From positions 1-59,302 of IMG/VR virus record IMGVR_UViG_3300046167_000227: a stretch of DNA of 59,302 bases; one strand, written 5' to 3'. This stretch comes from a virus (Duplodnaviria; Caudoviricetes). Within the stretch, counting starts at the first letter, position 1. The number at the start of each line of letters is the position of its first letter. A program made the position numbers and the translations under genes. This document shows, one piece after another, positions 1 to 58,758 of the stretch. The notes below the pieces were generated by a model. It searched no databases, had not been told where the DNA came from, and worked only from the letters and a program-made list of their open reading frames with translations.

Positions 1-681
1 ATACATTAGCACCTCTATTAGCAACCTCATTATAGTACAAGCTAGACATTTTCTCAGCTTTCCTATCTGATTTAACTATGTTCTTAATTATTTCTGCAAC
101 ATCTACACCATCTAATTTAATGTTTGCCCATGATTTGTAACTTTTTAGATTTGTGCATAGAAATCTTGTTTAGCATTTTGTAATTCATCTATGAATGTAT
201 CTATGTTAAAATTAGATGTGTTTTTACGTCTAACCTTATCATATTCACCTCTTATCTGACCATTAGTACAAAAGAAATCTATTGCACCAAAAAACACTTG
301 ATTAGACATACTACCATCAACACCATGTAATGCTATGATACGTTCAGCAATGGTAGTTGTATGCTTATCAGTAGTTATTTTAGTAGTAACATTAGGTAAG
401 GTTATATCAGCTATTATTACTGCATTATCTTTAGCAGTAGATACCTTAACTTTAAGCATTTCTAATTCGTATGGTGTCCTATTTTCTTTTATCACATTCT
501 CTACACCATCAATAAAATTCATATGTGATGTTGTATTAAAACTTTTAACCTACTATACCTATTGGAGTATCAGTTAAAGTATTGATTACATATTTTTTGC
601 TAGGTAATCTTGTTTTTCCTCATATGCAATATCAAATTTTAAATTGTCATTTAATTGTATTAATCTATTTGTATCTAACAT
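1..681 (-). CDS. DUF932-like protein, 3'-truncated redundant copy with indels
   Basis: ORF 145..522 is near-identical to part of 55343..56191; cut by the window end. Confidence 0.75.
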
Positions 682-982
682 TATTTATTCTCCTGTTGTT
701 TATTTAATTTTTCGTATTGTGCTTTTGTTATTTTAAAATCATATTTAGTTTTATCATCTTTAGTTATTTTTTTATAAAATATAGGATTGTTTAGTAATTG
801 TTCTTTTAATGTAATTCCTGTTAATAAAAATTGTCTTTCACTAAGTTTAGGAATTGAAATTCATTTCTTAAATCGTCATCAGTTTTACATTGTCTCATAT
901 CAATTTGAAAGTTAGACAATGGCAATTCCATACTATTTATATTACCTGTTAACTTAGATTTTCTATATATTTTATGTAACAT
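681..982 (-). CDS. Hypothetical early protein, divergent allele of 56191..56448 (frameshifted)
   Basis: Shares RKSxLTGNINSMELPLS and ERQFLLTGITL with the right-hand copy. Confidence 0.65.
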
Positions 983-1009
983 CTTATATTCTCCTTTTGT
1001 TATTGTTAG

Positions 1010-1219
1010 TTATACAAGTAAAACTACATCATTATAATTTACTTGTAAAGAGTTATTTAATTTATTTTTGTCTTTTAATAATTGTCCTGTTATTGCATCT
1101 CTACTTACATAAAAGTAACCTACATTATGTGAGATAGTACCTTTTTGAGCATACCTACTTGTAGTACGTCTAAAGAAAATGTTTTTATTTCCTATTGGAT
1201 TTTTAATTATGTTTTTCAT
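1010..1219 (-). CDS. Hypothetical early protein
   Basis: 69-aa ORF with AAGGA RBS; second copy near 56480-56690. Confidence 0.55.
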   Translation of the reverse strand: MKNIIKNPIGNKNIFFRRTTSRYAQKGTISHNVGYFYVSRDAITGQLLKDKNKLNNSLQVNYNDVVLLV

Positions 1220-1446
1220 TGTATTATTCCTTTCATTTTGTTATACAATTATTTTCTATTCTTATGTTATGTCATACAACTAAAAGTATGTCAATAACTT
1301 TATTTACTTTTTTTTATTATATTCTCTTCTATATTTTTCATTACCTCCTGTTACTGCTTTCATTAATCTATACTTAGTTTCTATTTCAAATTGTCTTAAT
1401 TTACGTCTATCAATTTCTTTTAATAGTTTTAGTTTTATATTGTATT

Positions 1447-1638
1447 TCATTTTAATAAATCCTTTATATTTGTTTCATTTTCTAATTGTACATCATATCC
1501 CATTGATGCAATAGTATTTAAATTTTCTATTGACAATGTTTTAGTTTTGGCAATATCTGAAAATGATTTAGCTATTTTACATTTAGGATATATTAATTGA
1601 TTACCGTATACATTTTTTATAAATACTTGTATTTTCAT
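1447..1638 (-). CDS. Hypothetical early protein
   Basis: 63-aa ORF with AAGGA RBS; second copy near 56914-57106. Confidence 0.6.
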   Translation of the reverse strand: MKIQVFIKNVYGNQLIYPKCKIAKSFSDIAKTKTLSIENLNTIASMGYDVQLENETNIKDLLK

Positions 1639-1972
1639 TCTATTAAAATCCTTTTCTATTTAGTTATATAATTAAACTATATTATTATTTTTTAGTTAGT
1701 CAACTATTTATTTTTATTTATTTGTTTTTATTGTAGATGGATATTTTAAATTAAATTCATAAACATTGCCAATTTTATATAAACATATAGCTATTAACAT
1801 TGTTAACAAATATAATATAAAGTATTGAAATAATAAATTATTATATCTTAATTCATCTATAAAGAATATAAAACTAATTCCTAAAGTTTAAATTACATAT
1901 TACAGTTATAAAACCTAGTATATGATATTTATTCATTTTAATTGCCTTTCTATACTACTATCATGTTTTATT

Positions 1973-1998
1973 ATGGTGTGACATTTTTGCCACACCAT
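1973..1998 (-). terminator. Hairpin, probable terminator after the swappable gene (copy at about 57446-57471)
   Basis: Inverted repeat ATGGTGTG...CACACCAT just downstream of the stop codon in both terminal copies. Confidence 0.5.
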
Positions 1999-2005
1999 TT
2001 TATAT

Positions 2006-2730
2006 TTATTTAATTTATTTTGCTTTTTCAATAATTGTTTTAACATCATTAAATGTATAACAAACTAAGCAATCTTTACATTTTTGAAAACAATTTATAT
2101 TATTATCCTTATCAAAATTATTTTTATATGTTTTCATAATCATTTTTAATTTTAGTTTTCATATCTCTTGTTATTTCATTCTTATTAAAAAACATTGTAT
2201 GTTGATTATAATATTTTTTGTATGATAACTTAAGCACATTATTAAATGTTTTATCAAAATGTTTTGGTATTTTAGTTAATGGCTTATCTAATATTGGATT
2301 AGAATATATTAATATTAAATTACTAGGTTTATCATTGTTATCAAAAAACTTTTTAATAATATCAAATCTTTTAGACCATAAAGTAAAAGTAGTTTTTGGA
2401 TTTTTCTAGCTATGTTTACATAGTTTTGAATGTTATTTAAATTAATCAATTCCCCATGACTATCAAAACCTAAAATATAAATCAAATATTCTTGGCAAGT
2501 TATCCCATTCAATGATTGAGTTACTTAATAATTTACTATTCTTTTCAAGTAATGCTACCATTGATTTGCGAAAATTTAAGGTAGTAAAAGAATAACATTT
2601 ATTACATATGATATCTTTTTTATCTTTTTGTTTAATGCAATATTCATTTGTTAAAGTATTAGTAGAAATATTATTTATACTTTTCCATTTTGAAAGCACC
2701 TTTTGAAATATGTAAAGTTTGAGTATTCAT
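2006..2730 (-). CDS. Cys-motif protein, GP88-like (allele A, frameshifted)
   Basis: Fragments 2463..2699 and 2315..2512 give ICNKCYS and YFRF..SHGEL; manual reading gives LWSKR and C-terminal CFQKCKDCLVCY. Confidence 0.55.
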
Positions 2731-3719
2731 TTTGTTTTAATCCTTTTTAAAATTTAATTGTTAGTAGGTTAATTTATTTATTTGTATAAGTAAAGTTTTA
2801 TTTAATGCTATTCCTATTTTATGCATCTTTTCAATTAGTATAGATGTTTTCATTTTTTGTAATTCATCTATATTATATTTATTAAAACATTTACTTTCAA
2901 TTACTGATTGTATTTTGGATTGCCTATTAAATTATTTGTTTCAATAATATAATTTTTATAAAGTTTATTAAATCTTGTTTATTCATTTTGTTTAATCCTT
3001 TTTAATTGTTATATTGTTTAGTACTAATATTCATAAATATTAATTAATTGATTAATACTATTATTTAATTTTTTAATTTCATTATCATATTTATTATTAG
3101 TAAAACTATAACCATAAATATTTTTTAACTAAACAAATTTCATTACTATTTATTTTTTTAAACTTTTTAACTTTTAAATAATCAATTTGTTTTCAAGTTT
3201 TTCTATTCTTTTTAATAAACTATTTTTTATTATATAGTAAGTTTGTTTATTCATTGTATTAAATCCTTTTGTTGTTATTTATTTGTATAACTAAAAACAT
3301 ATATTAAAAACATTGTCAACAGGTATTATTATTTTATTTATATGTATAGCTTTAATGATAGAGGTATCAGTTTTTGTGATACATGATATCAAAAGATTAT
3401 ATAAAAGAATAACTGTTAATTAATCAGTTTAAACTATGCATATTATACTACCATATATAGCTATAAATTAAATTATTCAGTCTATATATAGCATATAAAT
3501 GTTATTTTATTTCAGATACTTAGCTATTGATGATAGAAAATGGCACTAGGCATGCGACAGGTGGGGGGTATGCGTATACGTACTCAGAGAAATACACAGA
3601 TAGGTATTTTTAAGTGTTAACCACAAGTATAACTGTCAATATACCCATTGCCTAGCACCTAATGTGTGACATAAATATCACACTAATTTAACAATCGTAC
3701 ATGAATAAATTAATTGCTA

Positions 3720-3748
3720 TTGACAAGATGTATAAAACCTGTTATAAT
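3720..3748 (+). promoter_or_regulatory. Sigma70-type promoter for the plus-strand arm
   Basis: Perfect TTGACA (3720)-N17-TATAAT (3743). Confidence 0.8.
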
Positions 3749-3844: not shown

Positions 3845-3891
3845 ATATTATTAGAATAAATATCCGTACATATATAAAAATACCCTTGACA

Positions 3892-4617: not shown

Positions 4618-5106
4618 ATGAGTGCGAAGAAGATAGCAGACTTTATATTTGAGAATACTGGTAAAGGTGTAAATTATGCCATGAGAAAATTAGGCATAGC
4701 TAAAAGTGAGATAGACGGATTAACACCTAACCAACTTAAATTATATCTTGCAGAAAAGGCAAAGGGTTCTTACAAAGGTAGAACAAAAGCTAGAGATTCG
4801 GATACAGGAAAATTAGTAGTAGGTGGTGGTACATTAGCTACCCTAGCTTCTATATGGAATGAAATTGACCCAACTAAAGTAAAAAGGATGGGAGATGGAA
4901 CATTACGTGCTGAAAATTTAAAGAAGAAAAAGAAGATGGTTAAGAAAAAGGTAGTAAAGAAAACTCCACCTAAAGCTCCACCACCTAAACCTGATTCAGT
5001 TAAGAAGAAAAAGAAACAGCTTATGATGAAAGAGAAGTATACAGGTAAGGACTCAAATGTAAAGTTTAACTCTAGGGGTGGTATGCTCAAGAAGGGGAAG
5101 AAGTAA
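4618..5106 (+). CDS. Lysine-rich protein
   Basis: AGGAG RBS; K/P-rich; ends FNSRGGMLKKGKK. Confidence 0.75.
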   Translation: MSAKKIADFIFENTGKGVNYAMRKLGIAKSEIDGLTPNQLKLYLAEKAKGSYKGRTKARDSDTGKLVVGGGTLATLASIWNEIDPTKVKRMGDGTLRAENLKKKKKMVKKKVVKKTPPKAPPPKPDSVKKKKKQLMMKEKYTGKDSNVKFNSRGGMLKKGKK

Positions 5107-5432
5107 TGGCTGAGAATCCACTAGCAAGAATAAAAGCTAAATTAATAGCTAAATATGGTAAAGACAAAGGTATGGATGTATACAGGTCTGCAAGTAAAGA
5201 TATAAGCAATCAGATTGCAGGTGGTGGTGGAGAGATTGAAGGGTCTTCTCTAACACAACTAATGGACCCAGCAGACCAAGTAGAGTTTTATGAATATAAG
5301 TCTGACTTAGCAAAAGGTAAAAACATAGATACGTCAGCTACCAAGAACAGAAAAGGTGCTAACGACTACCGTAAGGGTGGCTACGTGCTCAACACGACTG
5401 ACAATAGAAAGGTCAAGAGAAATGGCAAATAA
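5106..5432 (+). CDS. Hypothetical protein with YRKGG motif
   Basis: TAATG-coupled ORF. Confidence 0.75.
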   Translation: MAENPLARIKAKLIAKYGKDKGMDVYRSASKDISNQIAGGGGEIEGSSLTQLMDPADQVEFYEYKSDLAKGKNIDTSATKNRKGANDYRKGGYVLNTTDNRKVKRNGK

Positions 5433-5643: not shown

Positions 5644-5896
5644 TAGAAATTATAAAAAAGAATATGCTAACTACCACTCTAAACCTGCACAGAAGGTGAA
5701 CAGAGCAGGTAGAAACAAAGCACGTAAGATAGTTATGAAAGCAGGTGGAACTGCGAAGGTAGCAGGTAAAGATGTCCACCATAAGAATGGCAATCCAAAG
5801 GATAACAGAACTAGTAATTTAGCTGTAGCATCTAAAACTGCCAATCGTTCTTTCAAGAGAACACGTACTGCTAAAAAACTTACTAGGAGAATATAA
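5636..5896 (+). CDS. HNH endonuclease-like protein
   Basis: DVHHKNGNPKDNRTSNL motif. Confidence 0.7.
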   Translation: MPSRNYKKEYANYHSKPAQKVNRAGRNKARKIVMKAGGTAKVAGKDVHHKNGNPKDNRTSNLAVASKTANRSFKRTRTAKKLTRRI

Positions 5897-6555
5897 TGGC
5901 AAAAGAGTACACAGTCAAGATTTTTGGGAAAACAAGAGACTACAAAAAAGTAGGTAATAAGTATTTTCAAATTATGAAAGATGGAAAATTAAATAAAAAT
6001 TCTGCAAGTGGAGCTTGGAGATTGCAACTAGAAAATGCTGCAAACTCTAGATTAGTTACTACCCCTAAAAAGGTGGCTACTTCAATGTTAGCTAGTGTAA
6101 GGTCTGCTGTGTCTAGTTCAAAGAAAAACAAAAGAGGTCAGGCACAAGCATCTACACCTAAAGATGATGGTGGTAGGGCTGCCTATTTGCGAAGTGAAAT
6201 TATAGACAAACTAAAAAAAGATAAGGCACTAGCTACTATAAAAAAAGATACTAGTAACACAAAAACAGATAGAAAAATATCTATGGGTAATAAAAAAACG
6301 GACAAGAAAATAGAGAAAAAGGTAGAAAAGAAAAAAGATATTAAACCTTTACAAAAAACACAGAGTAAGGCAATAAAATCTACTACAACAAAAGCTCTAC
6401 AGAATAAACCTAAACAAAATGTTAAAAAGAAAGTAGAGAAGAAGATTACAAAGAAGCCTGAATCTAAATTGGATTCAAAAGGTAACTATAAAGGCACAAA
6501 CATAAAGCCTACAAAGTTACAATTAGACAGACTAAAGAAAAGAGGACTAGCATAA
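5896..6555 (+). CDS. Lysine-rich protein
   Basis: 219-aa coupled ORF, very K-rich C-terminal half. Confidence 0.75.
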   Translation: MAKEYTVKIFGKTRDYKKVGNKYFQIMKDGKLNKNSASGAWRLQLENAANSRLVTTPKKVATSMLASVRSAVSSSKKNKRGQAQASTPKDDGGRAAYLRSEIIDKLKKDKALATIKKDTSNTKTDRKISMGNKKTDKKIEKKVEKKKDIKPLQKTQSKAIKSTTTKALQNKPKQNVKKKVEKKITKKPESKLDSKGNYKGTNIKPTKLQLDRLKKRGLA

Positions 6556-6686
6556 TGGTTATGAAGAAGAAAACAAAGTACATGGCTAAAGGTGGAATGA
6601 AGAAGACTAAATACATGGCTAAAGGTGGTGCAGGTATGAAGAAGACTAAGATGTACTCTCGTGGTGGAGCAGCTAAAAAGAAGTAA
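6555..6686 (+). CDS. 43-aa tandem-repeat basic peptide (not in ORF track)
   Basis: MVMKKKTKYMAKGGMKKTKYMAKGGAGMKKTKMYSRGGAAKKK; TAATG-coupled at both ends, AGGA RBS. Confidence 0.8.
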   Translation: MVMKKKTKYMAKGGMKKTKYMAKGGAGMKKTKMYSRGGAAKKK

Positions 6687-7390
6687 TGTCATATCTTATA
6701 AGTAACGTACCACATTTTAAATGTTGGGTACGTAAGGAGTTCACTTGTAATCATATGAATTATCACGGTGAATACCTACACGCACTAGCTTTCGCAGTTA
6801 ATACCATACCTGATAGGTCACTAAGTTTTCAGGTAGTCTTCACAGGTTGTACAGAAGATGACAATGTACACGGTGGTGCAATGTGGGCAAGGATGCCCAT
6901 ACAGGCACTCGTAGCTGACATACCTGTAGACGAATGGGCAGAGCCAATGGAAGACCACTTATGTCAACCTTGGGATTGTGAATCAAGAAACCATAGTGTT
7001 ATAGTTATGGACAGAGTCAGTTCTAGTCCGTGGTTATGTAAGATAGGCAATGAGTTCTACACAGCTAAGTATATGTTTACTGTTGACTACACAGACAGTG
7101 ACATAGCAGATGACCCTGCACAGCATAAGCAGTCACACGTGATGTACTTGTTGGATGCAGGAAAATGGACAGGCAATATAGTTGCACTGCCAAATAACAG
7201 AGTAAGAGCTACAAGTCCTGCTCTGTGGGTTACAGGAGAAGGTGCTCCAGACTTTGCACCATCACAGTGGACACACTCAGCAGAGTCACACGAATCTTAC
7301 CTAGACCCATTTACTACATTTAACAATTTATATGAGGATAGAGATGGCACTAGCAAAGGCAAAAAGAACAATAAAAAAAGTAGCAAGTAA
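6686..7390 (+). CDS. Conserved hypothetical phage protein
   Basis: 234-aa globular ORF with QPWDC, HKQSH and LPNNR motifs. Confidence 0.75.
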   Translation: MSYLISNVPHFKCWVRKEFTCNHMNYHGEYLHALAFAVNTIPDRSLSFQVVFTGCTEDDNVHGGAMWARMPIQALVADIPVDEWAEPMEDHLCQPWDCESRNHSVIVMDRVSSSPWLCKIGNEFYTAKYMFTVDYTDSDIADDPAQHKQSHVMYLLDAGKWTGNIVALPNNRVRATSPALWVTGEGAPDFAPSQWTHSAESHESYLDPFTTFNNLYEDRDGTSKGKKNNKKSSK

Positions 7391-7631: not shown

Positions 7632-7948
7632 TGACAGCAAAGAAGAAAAAGAAAAAGGCAGACCCTAAAGTTGGCACAGGTAAAAAACCGAAAGGTAGTG
7701 ACAGACGATTATACACGGATGAAAACCCTAAAGACACAGTTAGCATCAAGTTTGCCACGGTCACGGATGCCAAAGACACCATTGCAAAAGTTAAAAGAAT
7801 CAATAAACCATATGCGAGAAAGATACAAATACTTACTGTCCTTGAACAACGAGCCAAAGTATCTGGGAAGAGGGAGCAAGCAGCTCTCGCAAAAAGAGCA
7901 AAAGAACAATTAAAAAGGAAACACGAGAATGACAAAAGAAAAGTGTGA
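7631..7948 (+). CDS. Basic hypothetical protein
   Basis: Coupled ORF; RRLYTDENPKDT motif. Confidence 0.7.
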   Translation: MTAKKKKKKADPKVGTGKKPKGSDRRLYTDENPKDTVSIKFATVTDAKDTIAKVKRINKPYARKIQILTVLEQRAKVSGKREQAALAKRAKEQLKRKHENDKRKV

Positions 7949-8033
7949 TACTTGTGAGTGTTACGAATGTGACTATGAAGAATGTAATTGCGAATGTCAC
8001 GAAGATAAGGTAGCAGAAAAAGGTAATGATTGA
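7929..8033 (+). CDS. 34-aa Cys-rich metallothionein-like peptide (not in ORF track)
   Basis: MTKEKCDTCECYECDYEECNCECHEDKVAEKGND; fills the gap between flanking genes, AAGGA upstream. Confidence 0.55.
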   Translation: MTKEKCDTCECYECDYEECNCECHEDKVAEKGND

Positions 8034-9243: not shown

Positions 9244-9485
9244 GTGTAGAGACGTTTTTAAAATGGAAGATACTTCCTAGATTTATGATGTTGGCTAGTA
9301 CAGTAATGTCATGGAGATGTGCTGAATGGTTTATGGATTTAGATACACCGACTGCAGCACAGTCAGCTTTTGTATCAGTAGTTATGGGTGTGATGACAGG
9401 TGTCTTTGGCATTTGGATGGGTCACGAACATAAAGGAGACAACGATGTTAACAGCATTAATAGGACCAATCGCAAACCTCGCTAG
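9240..9485 (+). CDS. Two-TM membrane protein (holin/antiholin candidate)
   Basis: Two hydrophobic helices, upstream of holin and lysozyme. Confidence 0.55.
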   Translation: MSVETFLKWKILPRFMMLASTVMSWRCAEWFMDLDTPTAAQSAFVSVVMGVMTGVFGIWMGHEHKGDNDVNSINRTNRKPR

Positions 9486-9837
9486 TTCTTGGATGAGCAG
9501 TAAGGTTGAGAAGGTTAAAGCAGATGGTCAGGCTAAAGTAGCACAGGCTAAAGCTAAAGCAGTTGTAGCTGAGAAAGTTGCAGCAGGTGAAGTCGCATGG
9601 GAAAAGTCTATGGCAGACTCAACAGATAATTCGTGGAAAGACGAATTTGCCTTGACAGTTTTACTTTTACCTGCTATACTAGTATTTATACCTAGCATGA
9701 CAGAATATGTACGAACAGGCTTTGAGGTATTGAATACACTTCCTGAGTGGTATCAATATCTTTTGTTTATAGCTATTAGTGCATCCTTTGGTATTAAAGG
9801 TGCAGGTCAAGCTATGAAGATTATGGGGAAGAAATGA
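9445..9837 (+). CDS. Holin (3TM/GTA-holin-like)
   Basis: AGGAG RBS; SWKDE motif, LPEWY, FG..G; directly before lysozyme. Confidence 0.65.
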   Translation: MLTALIGPIANLASSWMSSKVEKVKADGQAKVAQAKAKAVVAEKVAAGEVAWEKSMADSTDNSWKDEFALTVLLLPAILVFIPSMTEYVRTGFEVLNTLPEWYQYLLFIAISASFGIKGAGQAMKIMGKK

Positions 9838-12502: not shown

Positions 12503-14661
12503 ATGGCAGAAAAAGATGAAGTAACACTAGACGATGATTCCATAGCATTAGAGGATGTAGAGGAAACAGCAGTCGGTGATATAAATGTGAGTGGGATTAT
12601 ACCATTTATTATGGATAGATACCAACGAGCCGAAGACTATCGTAGCAATGATGAAGAACGGTGGTTAAGGTCTTATAGAAATTATAGGGGGTTATACGGA
12701 AGTGATGTTCAATTTACTGAAGCAGAAAAGTCAAGAGTATTTATTAAAGTTACCAAAACAAAAACTCTCGCAGCTTATGGACAGATTGTCGATGTGCTAT
12801 TTGCAGGGAACAAGTTTCCTATTAGCGTTGAGCCGACAGTGTTACCTGAAGGTGTCGCAAGCTGACGTTAGCTTTGACCCAAAGAAGCCTGAACAGCTTA
12901 AGGAGAAACTGAGATGTCTTCGCCTTATGGGTTTAAGGGTGATGGCATGGATTTACCGAAGGGTGCTACTGAAAAAACATTGGCAGAAAGGCTGGGTCCT
13001 TTACAAGACAAGCTGGGAGAAATTGAAGGCTTGGAAGAAGGGGTAGGTAAAACACCTACTGCTGTTACATTTAGTCCTGCTATGGTAGCTGCTAAGTCTA
13101 TGGAAAAACAAATCATGGACCAACTACAAGAGTCAGGTGCAAGTAAGCAATTAAGAAGTACAGCATTTGAGATGGCATTATTCGGAACAGGAGTAATGAA
13201 AGGTCCTTTTGCTGTAGATAAAGAATATCCTAATTGGGATGAGGAAGGTAACTATAGTCCTGTCTTTAAGACTGTACCATCTACATCACACGTATCAGTA
13301 TGGAACTTCTTTCCTGACCCTGATGCTGCCAACATGGATGAAGCACAGTTTGTGATTGAAAGACACAAGATGTCAAGAACACAGCTACGTGGATTAAAGA
13401 AGAGACCTTACTTTCGTGCAAACGTAATTGACGAAGTAGTTGCATCAGGTGAGTCTTATGATAAAAAGTATTGGGAAGATGATTTATCTGACTATGCAGC
13501 AGACCACGGAATAGATAGATTTGAAGTACTAGAATATTGGGGAATGTGTGACGTTGATATGCTTGAGGAAAATGGTGTAGACATACCTAAAGACCTCAAG
13601 GAGTTTGATGAATTACAAGCGAACATATGGATTAGTAATGGTAAGTTAATAAGAATGGTTCTTAATCCTTTCAAACCTGCCACTATACCTTACATGGCAG
13701 CTCCATACGAGTTGAATCCATATTCTTTCTTTGGTGTAGGGTCTAGCTGAAAACATGGATGACACACAGACACTTATGAATGGCTTTATGAGAATGTCTG
13801 TAGACAACGCTGTGTTATCAGGTAACTTACTTATAGAGGTAGATGAAACTAACCTAGTTCCGGGTCAGGACTTATCTGTGTATCCGGGCAAAGTTTTTAG
13901 AAGACAAGGTGGTGCTCCGGGTCAAGCTATCTTCGGTACTAAGTTTCCTAACGTATCAAATGAGAACTTACAACTGTTTGACTAAGGCTAGACAACTTGC
14001 AGACGAGAGCACAGGCTTTCCGTCATTCGCACACGGACAGACAGGTGTACAAGGTGTAGGTAGAACTGCATCAGGTATATCAATGCTTATGAACGCAGCG
14101 GCAGGTAGTATTAAGACTGTTATAAAGAACGTAGACGATTATTTACTCAAGCCATTAGGCGAAGGTATGTTCCGTTTTAATATGCAGTTTAACTTTGACA
14201 AAGAAATCAAAGGTGACTTAGAAGTTGTTGCACGTGGAACAGAAAGTCTTATGGCTAACGAAGTACGTAGTCAGAGATTAATGTCCTTCTTACAAGTGGC
14301 ATCTAATCCTGCACTAGCTCCGTTTGCTAAGTTTCCATATATTATTAGAGAGATAGCTAAGTCTATGGAACTAGACCCTGAAAAGGTAACTAATAATATG
14401 GATGAAGCAGCAGTACAAGCCGAGATACTAAAAGGTATGCAAGGTGCTATGCCACAAGAACAACAACAACCACCACAGGCAGGTCAACCACCTGTAGGTG
14501 CTAACCCACTAGACCCCACAGGAGCAGGTGGTGGTAATGTAGGTACAGGACAAGCACCTGTGCCGGGCGAACAAGGATTTTCAGGAAATGATGGACAAGC
14601 AGGTGCTGCAGCAAATCAAGCCGCTAGTGAACAACCTCAAACTAATGAACAGCTTCAATGA
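12503..14661 (+). CDS. Portal protein (several indels)
   Basis: Fragments 12503, 12914, 13755 and 13909 join into a P22/N4-like portal (FGTGVMK, WNFFPDP, RTASGISML); follows terL. Confidence 0.88.
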
Positions 14662-14803
14662 TTACATTGATGAATTAATAAAGCAACAACATAAGATACT
14701 AGAACAGTCTAACGACATGATAACTCTACATAGGTCTCAAGGAGCTATAGCAACTTTAAGTAAACTCAAACTATTAAGGGATGAAGTAAATGGCATTAAA
14801 TAA
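14591..14803 (+). CDS. Small protein following portal
   Basis: LHRSQG motif of small post-portal genes. Confidence 0.65.
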   Translation: MDKQVLQQIKPLVNNLKLMNSFNDYIDELIKQQHKILEQSNDMITLHRSQGAIATLSKLKLLRDEVNGIK

Positions 14804-16472
14804 ACAAATGGAAATGTTTGAAGATGGTGGTCTCAAAGATGAAGGTGGCATGATTGACGAAGTATCAGGCAATGATGTTCCTCCGGGTTCTACAAGAGAA
14901 GAAGTTAGAGATGACATACCTGCACAGTTAAGTGAAGGAGAGTTTGTATTTCCTGCTGACGTAGTGAGATTCATAGGTCTTGAGAAGTTAATGCAGTTAC
15001 GACAAGAAGCTAAACAAGGACTGAAGCAAATGGAAGCTATGGGTCAGATGGGTAATTCAGATGAAGCTACTATGCCTGATGATTTACCTTTTGATGAAAC
15101 AGACCTTGACATGGAAGACGAATTAGAGTATAATAGAGGTGGAGTAGTTGAAGCAGCTAACGGTACTTATGTAGCACCTACTATTCCAACAGGTAGCCAA
15201 CCACTAGGAACAAATCCAATGGGCAATCCTATGGGAGTACCACAACAAGTAGCAGATGGAGTATCAGGCAGTACGCAGGGAACACCTTATGTACCTAATG
15301 TAGGTAAAATGTATGGAGTAGGAGCAACACCATACGCACCTGTAAGTTATAATCAGTTATTAGGACCTAGTGCAACAGGAGCACCTACGACAGAAACCGT
15401 TAGATACTTTAATGCAGCAACAGGTCAGACACGTATGATACCACATCTAGTAAACGCAGATGGCACAAGAGGTGCAACATTATATCCTGTGCCTGAAGGT
15501 TTTGTTATACAAGAAGAAGCACCTAAAGAGGAAGCTAAGAAGACAACTCAAGTACAATCAACTAAAGTAGCACCTGTAGAATCAGGAGATGGTGGCGATG
15601 GTGGTGCAGGTGGTGGTGCAGTAGACCTTGCAGGAGACCCTTTAAGTTATAGCAGTGTGTTTAGCATGGATGCTTTAGATAAACAAATGGCTAAAATAGG
15701 TGCAATGCAACTTAGTACCCTTGGTAAAGCAGGAGTATTTCAAGGAATTAGTAGTGCCGCAACAGGAAATCCTGAACGAAATCAAATGAAATTAGGTGCT
15801 CTTACACCTCTTTTCACATCTCTTAAAACTCAACTAGGAATTAAAGGTCAGGATTTAGGAAAATTAAAAGGTAAAACACCTGAAGAAATTGCAAAAATTA
15901 GAGGAGTAGTTGCTGCTGATATTGAAAGAGTAACTGCTGCTGTAGACAGATTAACTACTAATATAACATTTTCTAAAGATAAAAACGGAAATACAATTAG
16001 CACAGAATCTAATAAAAGCACAAAAGATACTATAGCTGACGTTAACGCTATGGCAAAACAGTATGGGTTAAAAGAAATTGATACAAAAACTAATGTTAAT
16101 CTCGGTTCTAAAATAGGTCAAAAGATAGCTGAAATAAATCAAGCTATTAAAGAGCAACCTACCTATAGTGAAGACCCAAGCGACACCATAGAAAGCAGAG
16201 ACCCAACAGCAGGTGATGTTTATAGTGATGAAACTCAAACAACGACTGCTGCAGAACAAGCAGCAAATAGAGCTGCTGCAGAGGCTTTTGCGAAGAGTGG
16301 AAGTGATTCTGATAACAACGAATCAAGTAGTGGTTCTGGCTCATCCGTAGATGGTGGTGACTATGGAGTCGGTTCTGAAGCAGGTATGGACTTTAAACAA
16401 GGTGGACTAGCAGGTAAAAAGAAAACACCTAAACCTAAGAAGATGAAGCGAGGTGGATTAGCTTCACGTTAA
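14790..16472 (+). CDS. Head-morphogenesis/internal protein with gpH-C-like GEFV domain and multiple xxxGG motifs
   Basis: FEDGG...DDIPAQLSEGEFVFPADVVRFIGLEKL...YNRGG; ends MKRGGLASR. Confidence 0.6.
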   Translation: MALNKQMEMFEDGGLKDEGGMIDEVSGNDVPPGSTREEVRDDIPAQLSEGEFVFPADVVRFIGLEKLMQLRQEAKQGLKQMEAMGQMGNSDEATMPDDLPFDETDLDMEDELEYNRGGVVEAANGTYVAPTIPTGSQPLGTNPMGNPMGVPQQVADGVSGSTQGTPYVPNVGKMYGVGATPYAPVSYNQLLGPSATGAPTTETVRYFNAATGQTRMIPHLVNADGTRGATLYPVPEGFVIQEEAPKEEAKKTTQVQSTKVAPVESGDGGDGGAGGGAVDLAGDPLSYSSVFSMDALDKQMAKIGAMQLSTLGKAGVFQGISSAATGNPERNQMKLGALTPLFTSLKTQLGIKGQDLGKLKGKTPEEIAKIRGVVAADIERVTAAVDRLTTNITFSKDKNGNTISTESNKSTKDTIADVNAMAKQYGLKEIDTKTNVNLGSKIGQKIAEINQAIKEQPTYSEDPSDTIESRDPTAGDVYSDETQTTTAAEQAANRAAAEAFAKSGSDSDNNESSSGSGSSVDGGDYGVGSEAGMDFKQGGLAGKKKTPKPKKMKRGGLASR

Positions 16473-33024: not shown

Positions 33025-33249
33025 ATGTTTAATCCAGCATTTAGTATTTCACAGGAAGTTGATGCTTTTATAAAGCAAAGAAAGAATATAAAAAAACCTG
33101 TTGCTAAAAATAGTGGGTTGTTAAAAAGAAACTCTATGGGTATTGATACGCAAGACAGTGGTGCAAAACAACCTATAGAAACTATAGCAGACATAGTAGA
33201 ATCACTCAGAGCAGAGCAACAAAACATTAAGGAATTAAAAGATGCCTAA
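33025..33249 (+). CDS. Hypothetical protein
   Basis: AGGAGG RBS; 74 aa. Confidence 0.65.
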   Translation: MFNPAFSISQEVDAFIKQRKNIKKPVAKNSGLLKRNSMGIDTQDSGAKQPIETIADIVESLRAEQQNIKELKDA

Positions 33250-33751
33250 TAGAAATGAACCATTGATAGATGCTCCTATTCCGGGAATGTCAATGACACA
33301 CGAGTTAGGTGCTAGACCGTGGCAACAACCTGCAAAGTACACAACGGTTGAGGATGCTTCTAAGTATTATATTACTAGGATGCAAGATAAACAGTTTACA
33401 GAGACATTAGTAAATGTTTTAGAAATGGGTGTTCCTATAACAACATTAGCTAATACAATACAGCTATCTAGTGTTATGCAAGGTTTGCATAGCATAGATG
33501 TAGGAATGTTGGTATTACCTGTTATTATGGAGACCATAAAATTAGTTGCAGATAGTGCTGATATAGAGTATAATACAGGATTAGATGCCGATGATTCTGT
33601 CAAAATAGGTAGTAATACAAGTGATATTGACGTTACGATAGGTAAACTAAGTGATTTAGTTGACGATGATGAAGATGAATTACCTATGGATACGCAAGAA
33701 ACTGCTACAGAAGAGGAAGAACCTCAAATGGGATTAATGGCTAGGAGATAA
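33242..33751 (+). CDS. Hypothetical virion-module protein
   Basis: PIPGMSMT..G.RPW..P; ends GLMARR. Confidence 0.7.
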   Translation: MPNRNEPLIDAPIPGMSMTHELGARPWQQPAKYTTVEDASKYYITRMQDKQFTETLVNVLEMGVPITTLANTIQLSSVMQGLHSIDVGMLVLPVIMETIKLVADSADIEYNTGLDADDSVKIGSNTSDIDVTIGKLSDLVDDDEDELPMDTQETATEEEEPQMGLMARR

Positions 33752-37900: not shown

Positions 37901-38402
37901 TCGTTTAAATATGCAAAACTTTCAAATATATAAAAGACATCCTAACGAAAAAGTAGATAGATTAACACGTTTTTATCTAAGTGAAGAAGGAAGTGATACT
38001 AATTTAAATGAGGTTATGGCTAGGGTAATAAGAAAAGACCAATATAAACAAATGTCTTATAAAGAAAAAAGAGAAGCTATTTATGTTGATTCAATGAAAA
38101 TTATAGGTAGAGCTAGAAAAAAAGCACTAGGAGAAATAAAAACTGTGGAGGGTTCAAAGGCAGGTGCTAAGTACACTACTATTGACTCTCAAAAGTGGCA
38201 ATCTCTAAATCAAAGAACCAAAGAAGCCGTCAATGAATTATTAAAAAGAGAATTACCTAAATATTCTTTTAATGATTTTACTAGTGTTAACGCAGATAAA
38301 GATAGAATGGTTAGAATAAGAGACAAAGAAATAAGTATATTAAATTTAGCAATAAAAGCAATACCTAAAGTAAGGAAAGGAATTATAAGTGGAACTAGAT
38401 AA
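34923..38402 (+). CDS. Large internal virion protein
   Basis: 1159 aa, helical, IPFPKF motif; podovirus gp16-like position. Confidence 0.65.
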   Translation: MYKDYNFYDSNDMNKEVLTKDLSFLEDAATLLEERAGFNDDELDTPEKIYETYMEHFRISDVNEVTAVKDLRHVMTGTTEQKARYGRLLDLYERSEGESFFEDVDTGVRKLGDYAQGLATAPSTIASVFTGGFSKIAAQGGVQASKLGIKKILKEVMKAGAKGAAIEGGIGLGQGVVKESTRVASGIKGEKGFEIERPLTETALAATGGFLLTGIARAATLPSELKTLKLEERASSAIKLREAKAKAKTDEVLKSADKDTISKIDENLVEVTKPKKGDIDVDKAPLDPKKVAEGIQLKKDKSTSETMTSTLSEEVRNNITAAVLRVGKDVVNQKPGERITAAIYRAIVRGDVPIDNITKVLDEHNITLDQFSLIYKADVSEAGRLLGQKGLISRTFGGKASKKDKQAVKDLLDQVDGLDKAGVSKVSAKETAETLKENPLLLGWRLFQDIDQARISFMTVQPKTAGRNTANGGFRVMTDAMTRAMDNVIYNTGQLRYGLKGNYRINPFDGTYDVAKFMFNPYEGDLIKKVFSESFPNESRRLFFKNADIEARAGGDGILTTIGRKLNFLNTASDNIFKRAVLGASLKRSIKDANIPISADAKKTIIQQRVAQILGPDYRTSPDYTKTVTAVTKQVNKQKNHTIFTAYESGEFSKIATDDMFTKATKDAYDFAYQTQFKEYGKLGSDAARGLITAVRKIPFLLSSAIPFPKFVASQLKFIYQHAPVIGMIPLEKIPNPLSPIKAKKVRYDFKDRLSKTLTGGVLTSVAYAWRARQGDTNHWYEYKNNEGKLVDGRPLYGPFSMFMLYADLIYRYKRDQLPTKSWGRYAKDVLQAVAGSTFRTGLGLYTLDKLLTDLSNTEGEGSEVKDRIVGEVVGNLVKTVTIPIAPFRDLYAQFDIKSSYVPESRTGETNLFDIIDARGTSNLIDFGEDTPFIGKEGFASIPSLASKLNLEYDKPARSAFQTGPIIAQDPLVSQITTETTRPAKNAYQQELGRLNMQNFQIYKRHPNEKVDRLTRFYLSEEGSDTNLNEVMARVIRKDQYKQMSYKEKREAIYVDSMKIIGRARKKALGEIKTVEGSKAGAKYTTIDSQKWQSLNQRTKEAVNELLKRELPKYSFNDFTSVNADKDRMVRIRDKEISILNLAIKAIPKVRKGIISGTR

Positions 38403-39591
38403 CGAAACTTTAAAACAAATTTCTGAAATAGATGACAGAATAGACAATCAGACATCTCCTAAATATAAAAGTGTAGGTGAGGCGTTAGAAGGTATAGGAA
38501 CAACGGTAGCAGGTATGGCTTCAGGTGCTGTTAGTGCTACATTAGGACTACCAACAGATGTTGTTGCTGCAGGAGTAGGTATAAAAGATGCTATATTTGC
38601 AGATGACGGTGAAAGAATGGATGCTTTTAGTAAGGGATTTACTGAAGTGTCTAAAGAAAACATGGGTTCAGAATACTATAAAGAAAACTTTAGTACCTTA
38701 CTAGATTCTTTAATTGATAATCCTGTGTTAAAGGAAGATGCTAAATCAGGTTTTAGTGCAGGTGAGTTTGCTGGTGTTGGTGGAGTTGTTGCTAAAGCAC
38801 CTAAGATAGCTAAAAATGTTATTGCACAAAAAGAAACAGCAAGAGAAATATTATCATCTATAGGACTATCCTCTAAAGCTATGAAAAATATAAATGTTGA
38901 TAATATGAGTATTGATGGTGCAGTAAATTTAGCTAAAAAGTTAAAGGTAGCTAGAGCTAAACTGTATGGTACAGATGAACAAGGTAATGTAGGTAATGCT
39001 GTAATGGCTATGACTGCTAAACGTGAACCATCTCCTGTGAAACAAATGACTGAAGCAGACCAAATGATTTCTGTGTTCCCAAAACCTGAAAGAATGTTTC
39101 CTAAAGGTGAAGCACCTAAAGGTGGTGACTATTTAAATCCTAAGACAGGAGATATATTAACCGATAGAAACGTATCTTCTGCAAACATAAAGATTAACCC
39201 AAATGGTAAACCTTCATTTAATGTTTCAAATGATAACGTGGATAATGTTGGAACTTTAGGTAAAGGGAACTCTCAAATAAAGACTAATTTATTTAAAAAG
39301 AAAGCAGGTTGGAAGTGGACAGATACTCCATCAGGAATGGATAATGTGGAAACATTAGTATCTGTCACACATAAAGGTAAACATTTTTACACAATAGAAA
39401 CTGATTTTACCAAAGGTGTTAATCTGAAGAAATATCCTAATCAGAAAACAGAACCAAAACTAAGACCAACTGTTGTGGGTCAGATAGAATTGGGAGAACC
39501 TATTGGTGAAATATCAGTAAGAGGTAATCCACATAAAGTGTATAATAAAATTAAAACATTCAATAGAGGTGGATTAATGGCACGTACTTAA
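38389..39591 (+). CDS. Putative injected protein with unknown C-terminal domain
   Basis: Last plus-strand gene; ends FNRGGLMART. Confidence 0.55.
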   Translation: MELDNETLKQISEIDDRIDNQTSPKYKSVGEALEGIGTTVAGMASGAVSATLGLPTDVVAAGVGIKDAIFADDGERMDAFSKGFTEVSKENMGSEYYKENFSTLLDSLIDNPVLKEDAKSGFSAGEFAGVGGVVAKAPKIAKNVIAQKETAREILSSIGLSSKAMKNINVDNMSIDGAVNLAKKLKVARAKLYGTDEQGNVGNAVMAMTAKREPSPVKQMTEADQMISVFPKPERMFPKGEAPKGGDYLNPKTGDILTDRNVSSANIKINPNGKPSFNVSNDNVDNVGTLGKGNSQIKTNLFKKKAGWKWTDTPSGMDNVETLVSVTHKGKHFYTIETDFTKGVNLKKYPNQKTEPKLRPTVVGQIELGEPIGEISVRGNPHKVYNKIKTFNRGGLMART

Positions 39592-49970: not shown

Positions 49971-50857
49971 TCATACTGTCAAATTTTTTCTTGTACTTAA
50001 TGCTAAATTAGCAGAAGCAAAGGTATTCTTCATGTAAGGCTTAACACTTTGTGGGTTTGCATGTCCTGTGACAGACATTATTTGCCCATTGACACACCAG
50101 CTTCTACCATCTCAGTCGTACCTGTTCTTCTTAAGTCTGCAATCGTAAGCTCTTTAGACAGTCCTGCAGAGTCCATAATCTTTCTGCCTACTATGGATAG
50201 CCTAGTGATGGTGTAAGGCTTGTACGCCTCTCTCTAGAGCGAGGGCGAGGGTGCTACATATTCTTGGAAACCAAAGTCTTCTTTCTGTTGTGTAAGCATT
50301 TAGTTAATCCATCACTTATAGGCAGATGAACTGTTGCACCTCGTCTTGGATTGCTCTAAGTTGAGTATCCTTTTGTCATAATCTATGCTATCAAACTGTA
50401 GCAATCTCATATCTCCTATCCTTTGACACCATTCATATGCCATTTGTACAATTAAACCTAGACTACGATATTGAAAATCTGCATAACAGAAATCTAATAA
50501 CTGCATAATCTGTTCTTTTGTCCATGTAACTTTTCTAGGCTTAGTAACTTTACACTTGAATGTAGAGAATGGATTAGTCTCAGCATAACCCATCTCCATT
50601 CCAAATGAATAAACTTTCCTAGAGGTAGCACATATATGGTTTGCCATATAAATGCCACGTTTTAGCCACACTTCATATGATTGTCTAGCAACTGCACCTG
50701 TCAATTTATTGACCTTAGTTGTATAAACAAACTTATCATCTATCTTAGTGTTCAACATTACAGATAAACAATTTGAATAATCTACTTTAGTTTTATCTGC
50801 TAACATATTGAAATCACTAGACAAATAGTACTTGTCTACTAAGCTATTTATATTCAT
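49971..50857 (-). CDS. Tyrosine integrase/recombinase (frameshifted)
   Basis: QRIGD and QSK in ORF 50312..50893; downstream frames give DLRRTG, TGH and KPY. Confidence 0.8.
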
Positions 50858-55342: not shown

Positions 55343-56191
55343 TTATGCAACTAATTCAAGTTTCTTAAACTCATTAGATGATATCCATTTGCTTACCTCT
55401 TGTTCTCTATTCCACATAGATAAACTTTCAGTATCATTGCCCATATTCTTTAGGCTAAATCCATTTCTTTCATCAGCATAGCTAGAGTAGTTAGTAAATG
55501 CTGAGTATAAAGAGAATACATTAGCACCTCTATTAGCAACCTCATTATAGTACAAGCTAGACATTTTCTCAGCTTTCCTATCTGATTTAACTATGTTCTT
55601 AATGATTTCTGCGACATCTACACCATCTAATTTAATGTTTGCCCATGATTGTAACTTTTTAGATTGTGCATAGAAATCTTGTTTAGCATTTTGTAATTCA
55701 TCTATGAATGTATCTATGTTAAAATTAGATGTATTCTTACGTCTAACTTTATCATATTCACCTCTTATCTGACCATTAGTACAAAAGAAATCTATTGCAC
55801 CAAAAAATACTTGATTAGACATACTACCATCAACTCCATGTAATGCTATGATACGTTCAGCAATGGTAGTTGTATGCTTATCAGTAGTTATTTTAGTAGT
55901 AACATTAGGTAAGGTTATATCAGCTATTATTACTGCATTATCTTTAGCAGTAGATACCTTAACTTTAGCATTTTCTAATTCGTGAGATGTTCTATTTTCT
56001 TTTATAACATTCTCTACACCATCAATGAAATTCATATGAGATGTTGTATTAAAACTTTTACCTACTATACCTATTGGAGTATCAGTTAAAGTATTGATTA
56101 CATATTTCTTGCTAGGTAATCTTGTCTTTTCATATGCAATATCAAATTTTAAATTGTCATTTAATTGTATTAATCTATTTGTATCTAACAT
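55343..56191 (-). CDS. DUF932-family protein
   Basis: HGVDGS, FFCTNG, SLYSAFTNY. Confidence 0.7.
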   Translation of the reverse strand: MLDTNRLIQLNDNLKFDIAYEKTRLPSKKYVINTLTDTPIGIVGKSFNTTSHMNFIDGVENVIKENRTSHELENAKVKVSTAKDNAVIIADITLPNVTTKITTDKHTTTIAERIIALHGVDGSMSNQVFFGAIDFFCTNGQIRGEYDKVRRKNTSNFNIDTFIDELQNAKQDFYAQSKKLQSWANIKLDGVDVAEIIKNIVKSDRKAEKMSSLYYNEVANRGANVFSLYSAFTNYSSYADERNGFSLKNMGNDTESLSMWNREQEVSKWISSNEFKKLELVA

Positions 56192-56448
56192 TATTTATTC
56201 TCCTGTTGTTTATTTAATTTTCTATTGTGTATATCTTCGTCTAATGTAATTCCTGTTAATAAAAATTGCCTTTCACTAAAGTTTAGGAATTGAAATTCAC
56301 TTCTTAAATCTATATTTGGATTATCATTAATTCTATTTATATCTACAAATGACAATGGTAATTCCATACTATTTATATTACCTGTTAAATCAGATTTTCT
56401 AGATATCATATTAAATTTATGTAACTTATGTTTTTTTAATGTAAGCAT
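56191..56448 (-). CDS. Hypothetical early protein (allele B)
   Basis: S.LTG....ME...ERQFLLTGIT motif. Confidence 0.7.
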   Translation of the reverse strand: MLTLKKHKLHKFNMISRKSDLTGNINSMELPLSFVDINRINDNPNIDLRSEFQFLNFSERQFLLTGITLDEDIHNRKLNKQQENK

Positions 56449-57478
56449 TTTGTATTCTCCTTTTGTTATTGGTTAGTTATATAAGTAAACTACACCATTA
56501 TAATTTACTTGTAAAGAGTTATTTAATTTATTTTTGTCTTTTAATAAATTGTCCTGTTACTGCACATCTACTAACATAAAAGTAACCTACGTTATGGGAA
56601 ATTGTACCTTTTTGAGCATACCTACTTGTAGTACGTCTAAAGAAAATGTTTTTATTTCCTATTGGATTTTTAATTATGTTTTTCATTGTATTATCCTTTC
56701 ATTTTGTTATACAATTATTTTCTATTCTTATGTTATGTCATACAACTAAAAGTATGTCAATAACTTTATTTACTTTTTTTTATTATATTCACGTCTATAT
56801 TTTTCATTACCTCCTGTTACTGCTTTCATTAATCTATATTTAGTTTCTATTTCAAATTGTCTTAATTTACGTCTATCAATTTCTTTTAATAGTTTTAGTT
56901 TTATATTGTATTTCATTTTAATAATTCCTTTATATCTACTTCATTTTCTAATTGTACATCATATCCCATTGATGTAATAGTATTTAAAGTTTCTATTGAC
57001 AATGTTTTAGTTTTGGCAATATCTGAAAATGATTTAGCTATTTTACATTTAGGATATATTAACTTGATTACCGTATACATTTTTTATAAATACTTGTATT
57101 TTCATTCTATTATTTCCTTTTCTATTTAGTTATATAATTAAAGTATATTATTATTTTTAGTTAGTCAATTAATTATTTTTATTTATTTGTTTTTATTGTA
57201 GATGGATATTTTACTATTAAACTCTTTAACTTTCAGCCTATTTTATGTAAACATATAGCTATTAAACATTGTTAACAAATATAATAAGAAATAGTGTAAC
57301 ATTAAATTATTATATCTTTAATATCGTCTAATATAGAATATTAAACTAATTCCTAAAGTTAAATTACATATTACAGTTATATAACACTAGTATATGATAT
57401 ACTATTCATTTTAATTGCCTTTCTATACTACTATCATGTTTTATTATGGTGTGACATTTTTGCCACACCATTTTATAT

Positions 57479-58500
57479 TTATTTGTTTAAACTTGCTATC
57501 TTTACAAATCCACTTAATATTGCTTTATTTAATTCAATTAATCTTTTATCCTTTTTATCCTTAGCTTTATATTTAAATCTTAATCCAATTATACATTGTT
57601 CTTTATGTTGTGGTAAGTAATCGTGTAAATCTCCGTCAATAACTTTAAATATTTTGTTATTAACTTTATATGTTTTAGGTAAATCTTTATTTCTTTTTGT
57701 ATCAAATACCATAGCTAAACTTAAACCATTATTAATAGCTATTTTAGTTTTATTAGTATCATTATCACTTACTGAATAAACAAACTTATAATCTTTATTA
57801 GCTATTCTATTAAAGTTTTTAGTATAATCATAATTTTTTAATATAATATCTTTATCATTATCTATTTTAGTTTGTTGTATTATTTCATTAGCTATATTAG
57901 AAAATGTATTTACTTTATTATTATAAACAATATTAATATTTTCATATTCAATATCACTTGAAATATTAAAACGTATAGATAATAAAAGACTATTTCTTAA
58001 ACAGTAATTAGCTTTTAATTGTATATATCTAATATACATAGCTAAAAATAACATAGGATTATTTAATAATAACTTTTTACGTTTTAACATAGCTTTTTGT
58101 TTAGCATCTATATAAGCAGGATTGCCACTATAAAAGATAACGCAATTACTTTTACAAGATGTTGTTGCATTGTTACAAACTGTTGTAATAACTTTATCTA
58201 ATCCATTATAATTTAAATAATCTAATATATCTTTATGATAATCATTATTATTAAAATCTTTTATTAATTCGTATGGTGCAATAGCAATACCTATTGAATA
58301 CATATTTAATTCTTTTAAGTTTTTAGCTAGTTTAGTTTGTGATTTGCTTTCACTTAAAAACGTAGTAAATCCATAATCCTTACATACGTTTTTTTAATTG
58401 GTTTAAATTCATATCTAAAACTTTAATGTTAATTATAAGTAACATTATCTAAGTTAAAAGTTTTACTAGTTAAATATTTATTTATATCTAATTTAATCAT
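57479..58500 (-). CDS. GP88-like protein (allele B; N-terminus frameshifted)
   Basis: TKLAKN, CNNATTSCKSNC, RFNISSDI, YDYTK, DGDLHD, IGLRFK. Confidence 0.65.
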
Positions 58501-58566
58501 TTTGTTTAATCCTTTTTAAAATTTAATTGTTAATAGGTTAATTTATTTATTTGTATAAGTAAAGTT

Positions 58567-58758
58567 TTATTTTAATGCTATTCCTATTTTATGCATCTTT
58601 TCAATTAGTATAGATGTTTTCATTTTTTGTAATTCATCTATATTATATTTATTAAAACATTTACTTTCAATTACTGATTGTATTTTTGGATTGCCTATTA
58701 AATTATTTGTTTCAATAATATAATTTTTTATAAAGTTTATTAAATCTTGTTTATTCAT
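58567..58758 (-). CDS. Hypothetical early protein (copy at about 2797-2986)
   Basis: 63 aa with AAGGA RBS. Confidence 0.55.
   Translation of the reverse strand: MNKQDLINFIKNYIIETNNLIGNPKIQSVIESKCFNKYNIDELQKMKTSILIEKMHKIGIALK

Follow-up and report, generated by a model that had tools for sequence, protein, structure and literature searches.

The 43-residue open reading frame (ORF) at positions 6555–6686 of the viral DNA analysed here (IMG/VR record IMGVR_UViG_3300046167_000227, 59,302 nucleotides (nt), referred to in full as the window) is evidently a real gene, and it belongs to an unnamed, abundant family in marine podoviruses of the HMO-2011 type. Its product is an array of three short lysine-rich units, each ending in Gly-Gly. 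Since the same array, or a single unit, also ends many other proteins, the Gly-Gly motif is, judged by these comparisons, a functional unit. Arrays stand either alone or as extreme C-terminal tails, and the window gene would therefore be a free-standing copy of a modular tail, a tag without cargo. As to its role, we tentatively favor a disordered, multivalent polycation that would bind DNA in the manner of a histone H1 or protamine tail, either alone or as a tether.

The array gene and its relatives

The gene is tightly packed between its neighbors. The TAA of the upstream 219-residue ORF (6553–6555) overlaps the ATG of the array (6555–6557), and the TAA of the array (6684–6686) overlaps the ATG of the downstream 234-residue ORF (6686–6688), which gives TAATG at both junctions. 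The coordinates, the junctions, and the translation into three tandem Gly-Gly units agree with an earlier note on this DNA, made from the letters and the ORFs. The Shine–Dalgarno-like GAGGA before the ATG argues that the array gene has an initiation site of its own. The units are spaced 11 and 13 residues apart, and unit 3 together with the AAKKK end (6669–6683) has the form shared with the C-terminal tags of other proteins. With 16 Lys and Arg and no Asp or Glu among the 43 residues, the net charge of the peptide is +16. Inspection of its sequence by eye reveals neither a signal peptide nor a membrane segment, and no match was found in Pfam, PHROG, or the PDB sequences, where the search returned a single chance row (expectation value (E) 1.2).

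The repetition is unlikely to be a product of composition. When the residues of the peptide were shuffled 200,000 times, at least three matches of the motif [MY].{0,2}[KR]GG arose in 19 cases, and the array is the sole ORF with three matches among the 562 six-frame ORFs (at least 25 residues) of the window. In the DNA, Tandem Repeats Finder reports a 33-nt period with 1.9 copies and 90% matches. Units 1 and 2 are separated by four synonymous differences (AAA/AAG, ACA/ACT, AAG/AAA, and GGA/GGT) and no replacement difference. Furthermore, comparison of the arrays of the window and three related loci (L013, L043, and L049) gave ratios of replacement to synonymous change (pN/pS) of 0.00–0.19, with pS reaching 0.75. 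Consequently, the peptide is what is conserved, and the earlier proposal that selection acts on the peptide rather than on the DNA is borne out. Contigs from four RNA-labelled runs (three studies) span the bin 6508–6691, and one contig of 490 nt links positions 6639–7128; because DNA carry-over is possible, these contigs were not counted as proof of transcription.

Counterparts occur in two cultured phages, both as three-unit arrays with KKKxMRGG units. In Roseobacter phage CRP-345, the counterpart is gp77, annotated as hypothetical; in Puniceispirillum phage HMO-2011, it is a 50-residue array between gp66 and gp65 that has no coding sequence (CDS) in the RefSeq record. The description of the gene as unannotated thus holds for HMO-2011 and has to be qualified for CRP-345. 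Both counterparts were located by a motif scan, as a tblastn search with the 43 residues against the phage collection gave no match, probably owing to the low-complexity filter. The comparison of copy number that the earlier note had suggested gave relatives with two to nine units.

Among the TerL-anchored IMG/VR loci with at least 6 kb of upstream DNA, 17 of 21 carry the array (15 passed a filter, and visual inspection added L004 and the fused L016); it was not found in L017, L030, L070, or L078. The window gene is one of several consecutive genes for small basic proteins on the structural-gene strand and precedes TerL by 4253 nt; in 16 other loci, the array on this strand lies 3385–5734 nt upstream of TerL. 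These counterparts, together with the purifying selection, establish the conservation on which the earlier note had made its reading depend. In a protein collection, we found 69 relatives of near-equal length and 270 longer ones, none of which is named, and the Atlas holds only unnamed viral clusters with 229, 67, and 56 members. A scan for one unit junction yielded 77 loci, which comprise 52 free arrays (at most 90 residues), 23 fused arrays, and 2 cut by contig ends. The number of units per array ranges from 2 (P0019) to about 9 (L112 and L144), with 3 and 4 being the commonest among the distinct free arrays.

The unit itself is strongly constrained. In the window gene, it occupies 11–13 residues and follows the pattern K-K-T/S-K-Y/M-M-x-K/R-G-G, with a basic end after the array. 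This fits the pattern of the family as a whole, in which a basic cluster, Met/Tyr, Lys/Arg, and Gly-Gly recur in units 8–15 residues apart and are followed by a basic tail. Over 134 window-type units, the Lys positions are conserved at 92, 88, and 87%, Thr/Ser at 84%, Tyr/Met at 81%, Met at 90%, Lys/Arg at 92%, and Gly-Gly at 100%. Similarly, 163 units of the type found beside a SET methyltransferase gene in a sister lineage (see below) show Met at 97%, Arg at 72%, and Gly-Gly at 100%, and 19% have Met at the position before Gly-Gly. Acidic residues (Asp/Glu) are almost absent, with one array of 35 distinct ones and one of 44 having any, and a few natural variants carry RCG or RAG instead of the last RGG. 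This conservation of 81–100% across the unit positions, the variable copy number, and the recurrence of the unit at the ends of other proteins uphold the earlier claim that the motif is a functional unit.

Tails on other proteins and neighboring genes

In the longer relatives, of which 120 of the 270 matches were listed, the last unit is mostly (108 of 120) followed by exactly five residues, so that the array forms the extreme C-terminus there. Among these 120, the N-terminal parts fall into 13 unrelated clusters. The commonest fusion partner is LysM, found in about 30 of the 120 (Pfam E 1e-12); besides LysM, no Pfam family scored above the curated cut-off in the partners. In one relative of 295 residues (P0137), the protein encoded upstream of the array in the window and the array are joined in one chain. 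The window also carries the unit on other proteins (Table 1): [RKQ]GG lies within the last 16 residues of 5 of its 76 proteins compared with 0.95 expected. HMO-2011 gp68, compared here with the 162-residue protein of the window, ends FNRGGMVKKRKK. A related GLMARR end is common to a protein of 164–180 residues in the window, CRP-345, and HMO-2011.

Other observations concern the ends and lengths of such proteins. The N-terminus of the post-portal protein (14790–14960 in the window; MALNKQMEMFEDGGLKDEGG...SEGEFVFPADVVR) is conserved in HMO-2011 gp49 and CRP-345 gp62, and the lengths of the three proteins differ (560, 762, and 1246 residues in the window, HMO-2011, and CRP-345, respectively). 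In a more distant phage type (L144, 304–4395), several proteins end in another tag, ...[YF]A[KM]GGGVRKP followed by basic residues, and the same locus has a 129-residue array of about nine units with an additional C-terminal part. A second recurrent C-terminal motif, DYR[KS]GG[YM]VL...DNRKK, was seen at 5106–5432 in the window, at 3852–4052 in L082, and at 9479–9724 in L070, and it is fused behind Gly-Gly units in L082.

Table 1. Coordinates of the array gene, its units, and associated features; positions refer to the window unless another record is named.
Feature	Position	Strand	Remarks
Sigma-70-like promoter match	3720..3748	+	TTGACA, 17 nt, TATAAT, with TG; 12/12; precedes the small basic-protein gene block that holds the array; consensus match only
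162-residue protein	4618..5106	+	ends in one unit, KFNSRGGMLKKGKK (end also written ...FNSRGGMLKKGKK)
Upstream 219-residue Lys-rich gene	5896..6555	+	net charge +44
GAGGA, Shine–Dalgarno-like	6542..6546	+	8 nt before the array ATG; pattern match, putative function
Repeat-array gene, 43 residues	6555..6686	+	MVMK, three units, AAKKK; translation MVMKKKTKYMAKGGMKKTKYMAKGGAGMKKTKMYSRGGAAKKK
Unit 1, KKTKYMAKGG	6567..6596	+	residues 5–14
Unit 2, KKTKYMAKGG	6600..6629	+	residues 16–25; peptide same as unit 1, 4 synonymous differences
Unit 3, KKTKMYSRGG	6639..6668	+	residues 29–38
Downstream gene, phrog_3704, 234 residues	6686..7390	+	labelled 'PurM' or 'ferredoxin' in databases; no Pfam family
560-residue protein encoded after the portal gene	14790..16472	+	ends DFKQGGLAGKKKTPKPKKMKRGGLASR (two units)
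169-residue protein	33242..33751	+	ends QMGLMARR; counterparts end GGLMARRA (CRP-345) and TGLMARRK (HMO-2011)
400-residue protein, last gene of the plus-strand block	38389..39591	+	ends KTFNRGGLMART (...FNRGGLMART)
Unannotated array ORF of HMO-2011	4503-4655 of L002 (region 50628-50780 of the HMO-2011 record)		

Two genes accompany the array in a lineage-specific manner. In the lineage of the window, 77 loci were compared: the phrog_3704 gene is immediately next to the array in 73, and the other four end within 260 nt of the array. All 73 testable window-type loci thus have the gene beside the array, downstream in 64 and upstream in 9; in these 9 loci, the coat protein is only about 41% identical, and the pair lies between the coat and adaptor genes. 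The link is not obligatory, as arrays without the gene are present in HMO-2011, CRP-345, and L031, the gene occurs without an array in L030 and L078, and it lies among replication and nucleotide genes in HTVC027P, HTVC008M, and P-SSM2. The predicted model of the protein (predicted local distance difference test (pLDDT) 84.7) contains two five-stranded beta barrels, and residues F48, W96, and Y129, putative members of an aromatic cage, are invariant. Foldseek gave weak matches of the model to the Tudor/Agenet proteins SETDB1, ADCP1, and FMRP (E 5e-3 to 0.1, template modeling (TM) score about 0.2), and VIA gave Z 3.4–4.2 over 50–66 residues against Tudor/Agenet folds, at most 4.8, which is below the trust level of the tool. 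We treat the resemblance of the predicted fold to methyl-lysine readers as a lead only. A complex prediction of the array with the 6686–7390 protein scored 0.00; it was run without controls and counts neither way. The proteins flanking the array are acidic (net charge −13, −21, and −22). Charge complementarity with these neighbors was considered and dropped because most proteins here are acidic (the coat protein has −16).

In the sister lineage, where the units read KKKMRGGG, the array lies in a cassette with overlapping stops and starts, between an acidic 175-residue phrog_28122 protein and a SET-domain protein of about 121 residues (loci L162–L241 and also L032, L038, L040, L042, L066, L067, and L076). 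The SET domain is recognized by Pfam at E 1e-11 to 1e-14, with the NHSxxPN and HDYG motifs kept. Of 80 loci fetched by the SET protein, 72 have enough upstream DNA, and in all 72, the array ORF ends 0–1 nt before the SET start; the phrog_28122 gene was likewise found in 72 SET loci. The model of the phrog_28122 protein (pLDDT 76) has weak matches, by Foldseek to Rossmann-type methyltransferases (E at least 0.17) and by VIA with AglA as the best (Z 6.3), and no protease-like fold was among these matches.

The window itself is evidently the complete genome of an HMO-2011-type marine podovirus. Its coat protein is 78% identical to those of CRP-345 and HMO-2011, its gene order matches that of HMO-2011, and the completeness estimate for the IMG/VR record is 100%. 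The ends of the record (1–3533 and 55516–59302) are direct repeats of 90–97% identity, in which 1–721, 801–2011, and 2724–3533 align to the last 3.8 kb; their G+C content is very low (21–23% compared with about 38%). The pattern resembles that of a genome with circular permutation, whose assembly combined two strain variants and ran on beyond its starting point, or else that of long terminal repeats. Without one copy of the repeat, the genome is about 55.5 kb, similar to HMO-2011. Compared with the 711-residue portal of HMO-2011, the portal gene (12503–14661) is broken, with an in-frame stop at 12863–12865 and shifts of frame near 13740 and 13980, which could reflect a sequencing error or a defective copy. 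Besides the promoter-like match in Table 1, a near-perfect sigma-70-type match (11/12, with TG) at 9652–9680 on the plus strand precedes the lysozyme and terminase genes; such matches are in total no more numerous in the window than in shuffles, and these assignments are pattern matches. An acidic, Cys-rich ORF of 34 residues lies at 7929–8033 (CDTCECYECDYEECNCECHE), and a similar Cys-rich ORF is found in L144 at 110–304.

Possible roles of the array

Could the free array and the tails bind DNA? In the explanation that we tentatively prefer, the tail would act as a disordered, multivalent binder of polyanions, most probably DNA, similar to the tails of histone H1, Hc1, and the protamines. Three elements would be contributed by each unit, namely a cluster of Lys residues, a turn at Lys/Arg-Gly-Gly able to approach the backbone closely, and the side chain of Met/Tyr, and the affinity would be set by the number of units. 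The free array would coat or condense DNA, and the array as a tail would tether other proteins to it, be it intracellular DNA or, as with T7 gp7.3, the DNA lying within the capsid and tail channel. In the sister lineage, the SET methyltransferase, whose gene is translationally coupled to the array, would probably act on the lysines of the array. DNA is preferred as the target because of the charge, the parallel with H1-like proteins and SET enzymes, and the precedent of T7 gp7.3.

Several points weigh against this explanation. DNA binding by the array is a deduction from its charge (+16). The conservation of the unit goes far beyond composition, with Met at 90–97%, Gly-Gly at 100%, and, in the window type, Lys/Arg before Gly-Gly at 92%; the near-invariant Met and Gly-Gly would suit recognition by a specific protein at least as well as generic charge neutralization, if not better. 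The fusions to LysM, a peptidoglycan binder, suggest a link with the cell envelope or with ejected proteins of the virion. No SET gene was found in the window, HMO-2011, CRP-345, or three near-complete relatives, and therefore methylation would not be essential. In addition, all compared loci are relatives within one phage group, and the counts given above are not independent events. An extended form of the proposal, a phage 'mini-chromatin' in which the array coats DNA, the SET enzyme writes (in one lineage), the two-barrel, possibly Tudor-like 6686–7390 protein reads, and the tail recruits small proteins, seems to us quite improbable.

Is the unit, instead, read by a protein of the particle? 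We consider it unlikely, but well worth keeping in view, that the unit is a virion-targeting or ejection tag recognized by a structural protein (portal, coat interior, scaffold, or nozzle), which would load proteins for ejection. The free array would then be a plug, a filler, or a competitor, and this possibility overlaps with DNA binding if the reader is the packaged DNA itself. It would explain why units end the post-portal protein, the last gene product of the structural block, and the 162-residue protein, with the GLMARR end on the 164–180-residue protein, and it agrees with a second lineage (L130 and others) in which the array is flanked by the coat genes on one side and the adaptor and nozzle genes on the other, as well as with HMO-2011, in which the gene next to the array is classified by PHROG as 'virion structural protein'. 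LysM would be sensible on a protein ejected into the periplasm, and T7 gp6.7 and gp7.3 are small ejected proteins that end in or contain GGKK. However, the ends of the T7 internal proteins gp13–gp16 do not carry the tag, the C-terminus of the scaffold is unlike it, no reader was identified, and the perfect sigma-70-type match ahead of the block could mean expression apart from the head genes; in the literature searched, no virion proteome of any HMO-2011-type phage was found. The LysM fusions, as the commonest fused form, and the position of the gene 3.4–5.7 kb upstream of TerL, in a region that also has a lysozyme gene, would equally suit a polycation directed at the envelope, whose tail binds anionic lipid, lipopolysaccharide, or the cell wall at entry or lysis, and whose free form is membrane- or wall-active. 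We regard this as improbable, since most fusion partners are not wall-binding domains, the sequence has no signal peptide or membrane segment that can be seen, Gly-Gly every 11 residues and the low hydrophobicity would speak against an amphipathic helix, and the SET pairing has no obvious place in it.

The adjacent genes raise the question of whether the array is simply a substrate, pseudosubstrate, or partner of the neighboring product (SET in the sister lineage and phrog_3704 in the window), with no DNA role. The unbroken adjacency in 72/72 SET loci and 73/73 testable window-type loci and the acidity of the flanking proteins are what one would expect from such a relationship, and yet arrays exist with neither partner, the phrog_3704 gene occurs without arrays and among replication and nucleotide genes in other phages, the Tudor/Agenet matches of the two-barrel protein are weak, and most phage proteins here are acidic anyway; we give this possibility a small chance. 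The earlier note had proposed either a multivalent decoy for a tag reader, for which no reader was identified, or a polyprotein of short cationic peptides. In the polyprotein, cleavage after each Gly-Gly would release peptides of about 11 residues, comparable to mu, the product of adenovirus pX. Gly-Gly is indeed invariant at every unit end, and the M-R-G-G of the SET type fits the adenovirus protease consensus (M/L/I)-X-G-G. On the other hand, no peptidase family was found in the Pfam and PHROG scans of the 76 window proteins (a negative that covers these families, so that unfamiliar folds could escape it), and the phrog_28122 protein has no protease-like match. The residue four before the cut varies by lineage, being Ala (65%), Ser, or Met in the window type and Met (97%) in the SET type; in most cases, the array simply ends a larger protein as its C-terminal tail; and RCG or RAG can replace the last RGG. 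The missing peptidase, the misfit of the window units to the consensus, and the position as a plain tail make the polyprotein proposal weak, and we now consider it very improbable. Finally, the TAATG on both sides and the purine-rich AAG/AAA codons could be those of an ORF without any peptide function, a pad that delivers ribosomes by translational coupling into the next gene. This is hardly credible, given that synonymous changes approach saturation but replacements are strongly avoided, and that the same peptide is fused to many proteins.

The DNA-binding tail, or whichever of these roles applies, would belong to an ecologically prominent group: the excerpted text of PMC9038755 describes the HMO-2011-type phages as a dominant, broadly distributed marine viral group, and that text makes no mention of 'LysM', 'lysine', 'basic', or 'proteom'. 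Although abundant in these phages, this small gene family is unnamed, is represented by no family in Pfam or PHROG, and goes without a CDS in the reference record of HMO-2011; the literature searched, as far as its texts were accessible and with supplements outside the scope, held no description of the array or of a phage SET–array pair. As a polybasic module of variable copy number that is reused as a tail, the array may offer a handle on phage DNA handling and protein sorting, and the array and SET protein of the sister lineage would be simple candidates for a natural, phage-encoded SET enzyme with its substrate. HMO-2011 and CRP-345 are members available in culture.

Comparison with known systems

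A podovirus precedent is found in T7, whose gp7.3 contains ...AGGKK.... In the part of PMC11784390 consulted, K84 and K85 of gp7.3 are in contact with the end of the DNA within the tail channel, and its basic N-terminus surrounds the DNA. Similar to the array, T7 gp7.3 and gp6.7 are small, basic, largely disordered, and encoded just before the podovirus head genes; gp7.3 holds AGGKK and gp6.7 (DUF5476) ends FGGKK, so that only the GGKK-like end is shared. Unlike the array, which is known here from genes alone, they have no tandem repeats, and no relationship to the array is detectable by sequence (Pfam assigns the array to no family).

Viruses of eukaryotes also use short basic peptides on their DNA. 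Adenovirus pX (mu) and pVII are short, very basic, DNA-condensing viral peptides with Gly-Gly at their cleavage sites, and the protease consensus is (M/L/I)-X-G-G. They differ from the array in that no protease was found for the window, the window units miss this consensus, and the array is mostly a tail that looks uncut. Cargo tags of HK97-fold shells, such as the cargo-loading peptides of encapsulins and the capsid-targeting sequence of T4, are short terminal peptides on unrelated proteins of one particle. In contrast to the array, for which no reader was identified, these tags are single, are not polybasic arrays, and have a known binding site on the shell. The baculovirus P6.9 and ascovirus P64 proteins are small or repeat-rich cationic proteins that condense viral DNA (as described in the consulted parts of PMC6163548 and PMC5899202); they are Arg/Ser-rich and belong to eukaryotic viruses, and their sequence relation to the array was judged by family scans only. 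Peptides with double-glycine leaders of the C39 type are a further class with this motif, and no C39 peptidase or ABC exporter family was found in the Pfam and PHROG scans of the 76 window proteins.

For the sister lineage, the nearest parallels are the pairs of SET enzymes with basic DNA-binding proteins, cpnSET with Hc1 and Go1-SET with MC1-alpha (in the part of PMC3980110 consulted). The Chlamydia Hc1/Hc2–cpnSET and archaeal MC1-alpha–Go1-SET systems resemble the phage cassette in combining a Lys-rich DNA-binding protein with a SET enzyme, DNA binding by the array being presumed. They differ in that the unit of the array is built on Met/Tyr and Gly-Gly rather than Lys/Ala, in the phage host, and in the window genome, which lacks SET; no sequence or profile relation of the array to the H1-like Hc1/Hc2 proteins was found in Pfam, PHROG, or the PDB sequences. 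The array would thus represent a kind that is already known, the tandem-repeat polybasic tail, in the form of a family that appears to be undescribed.

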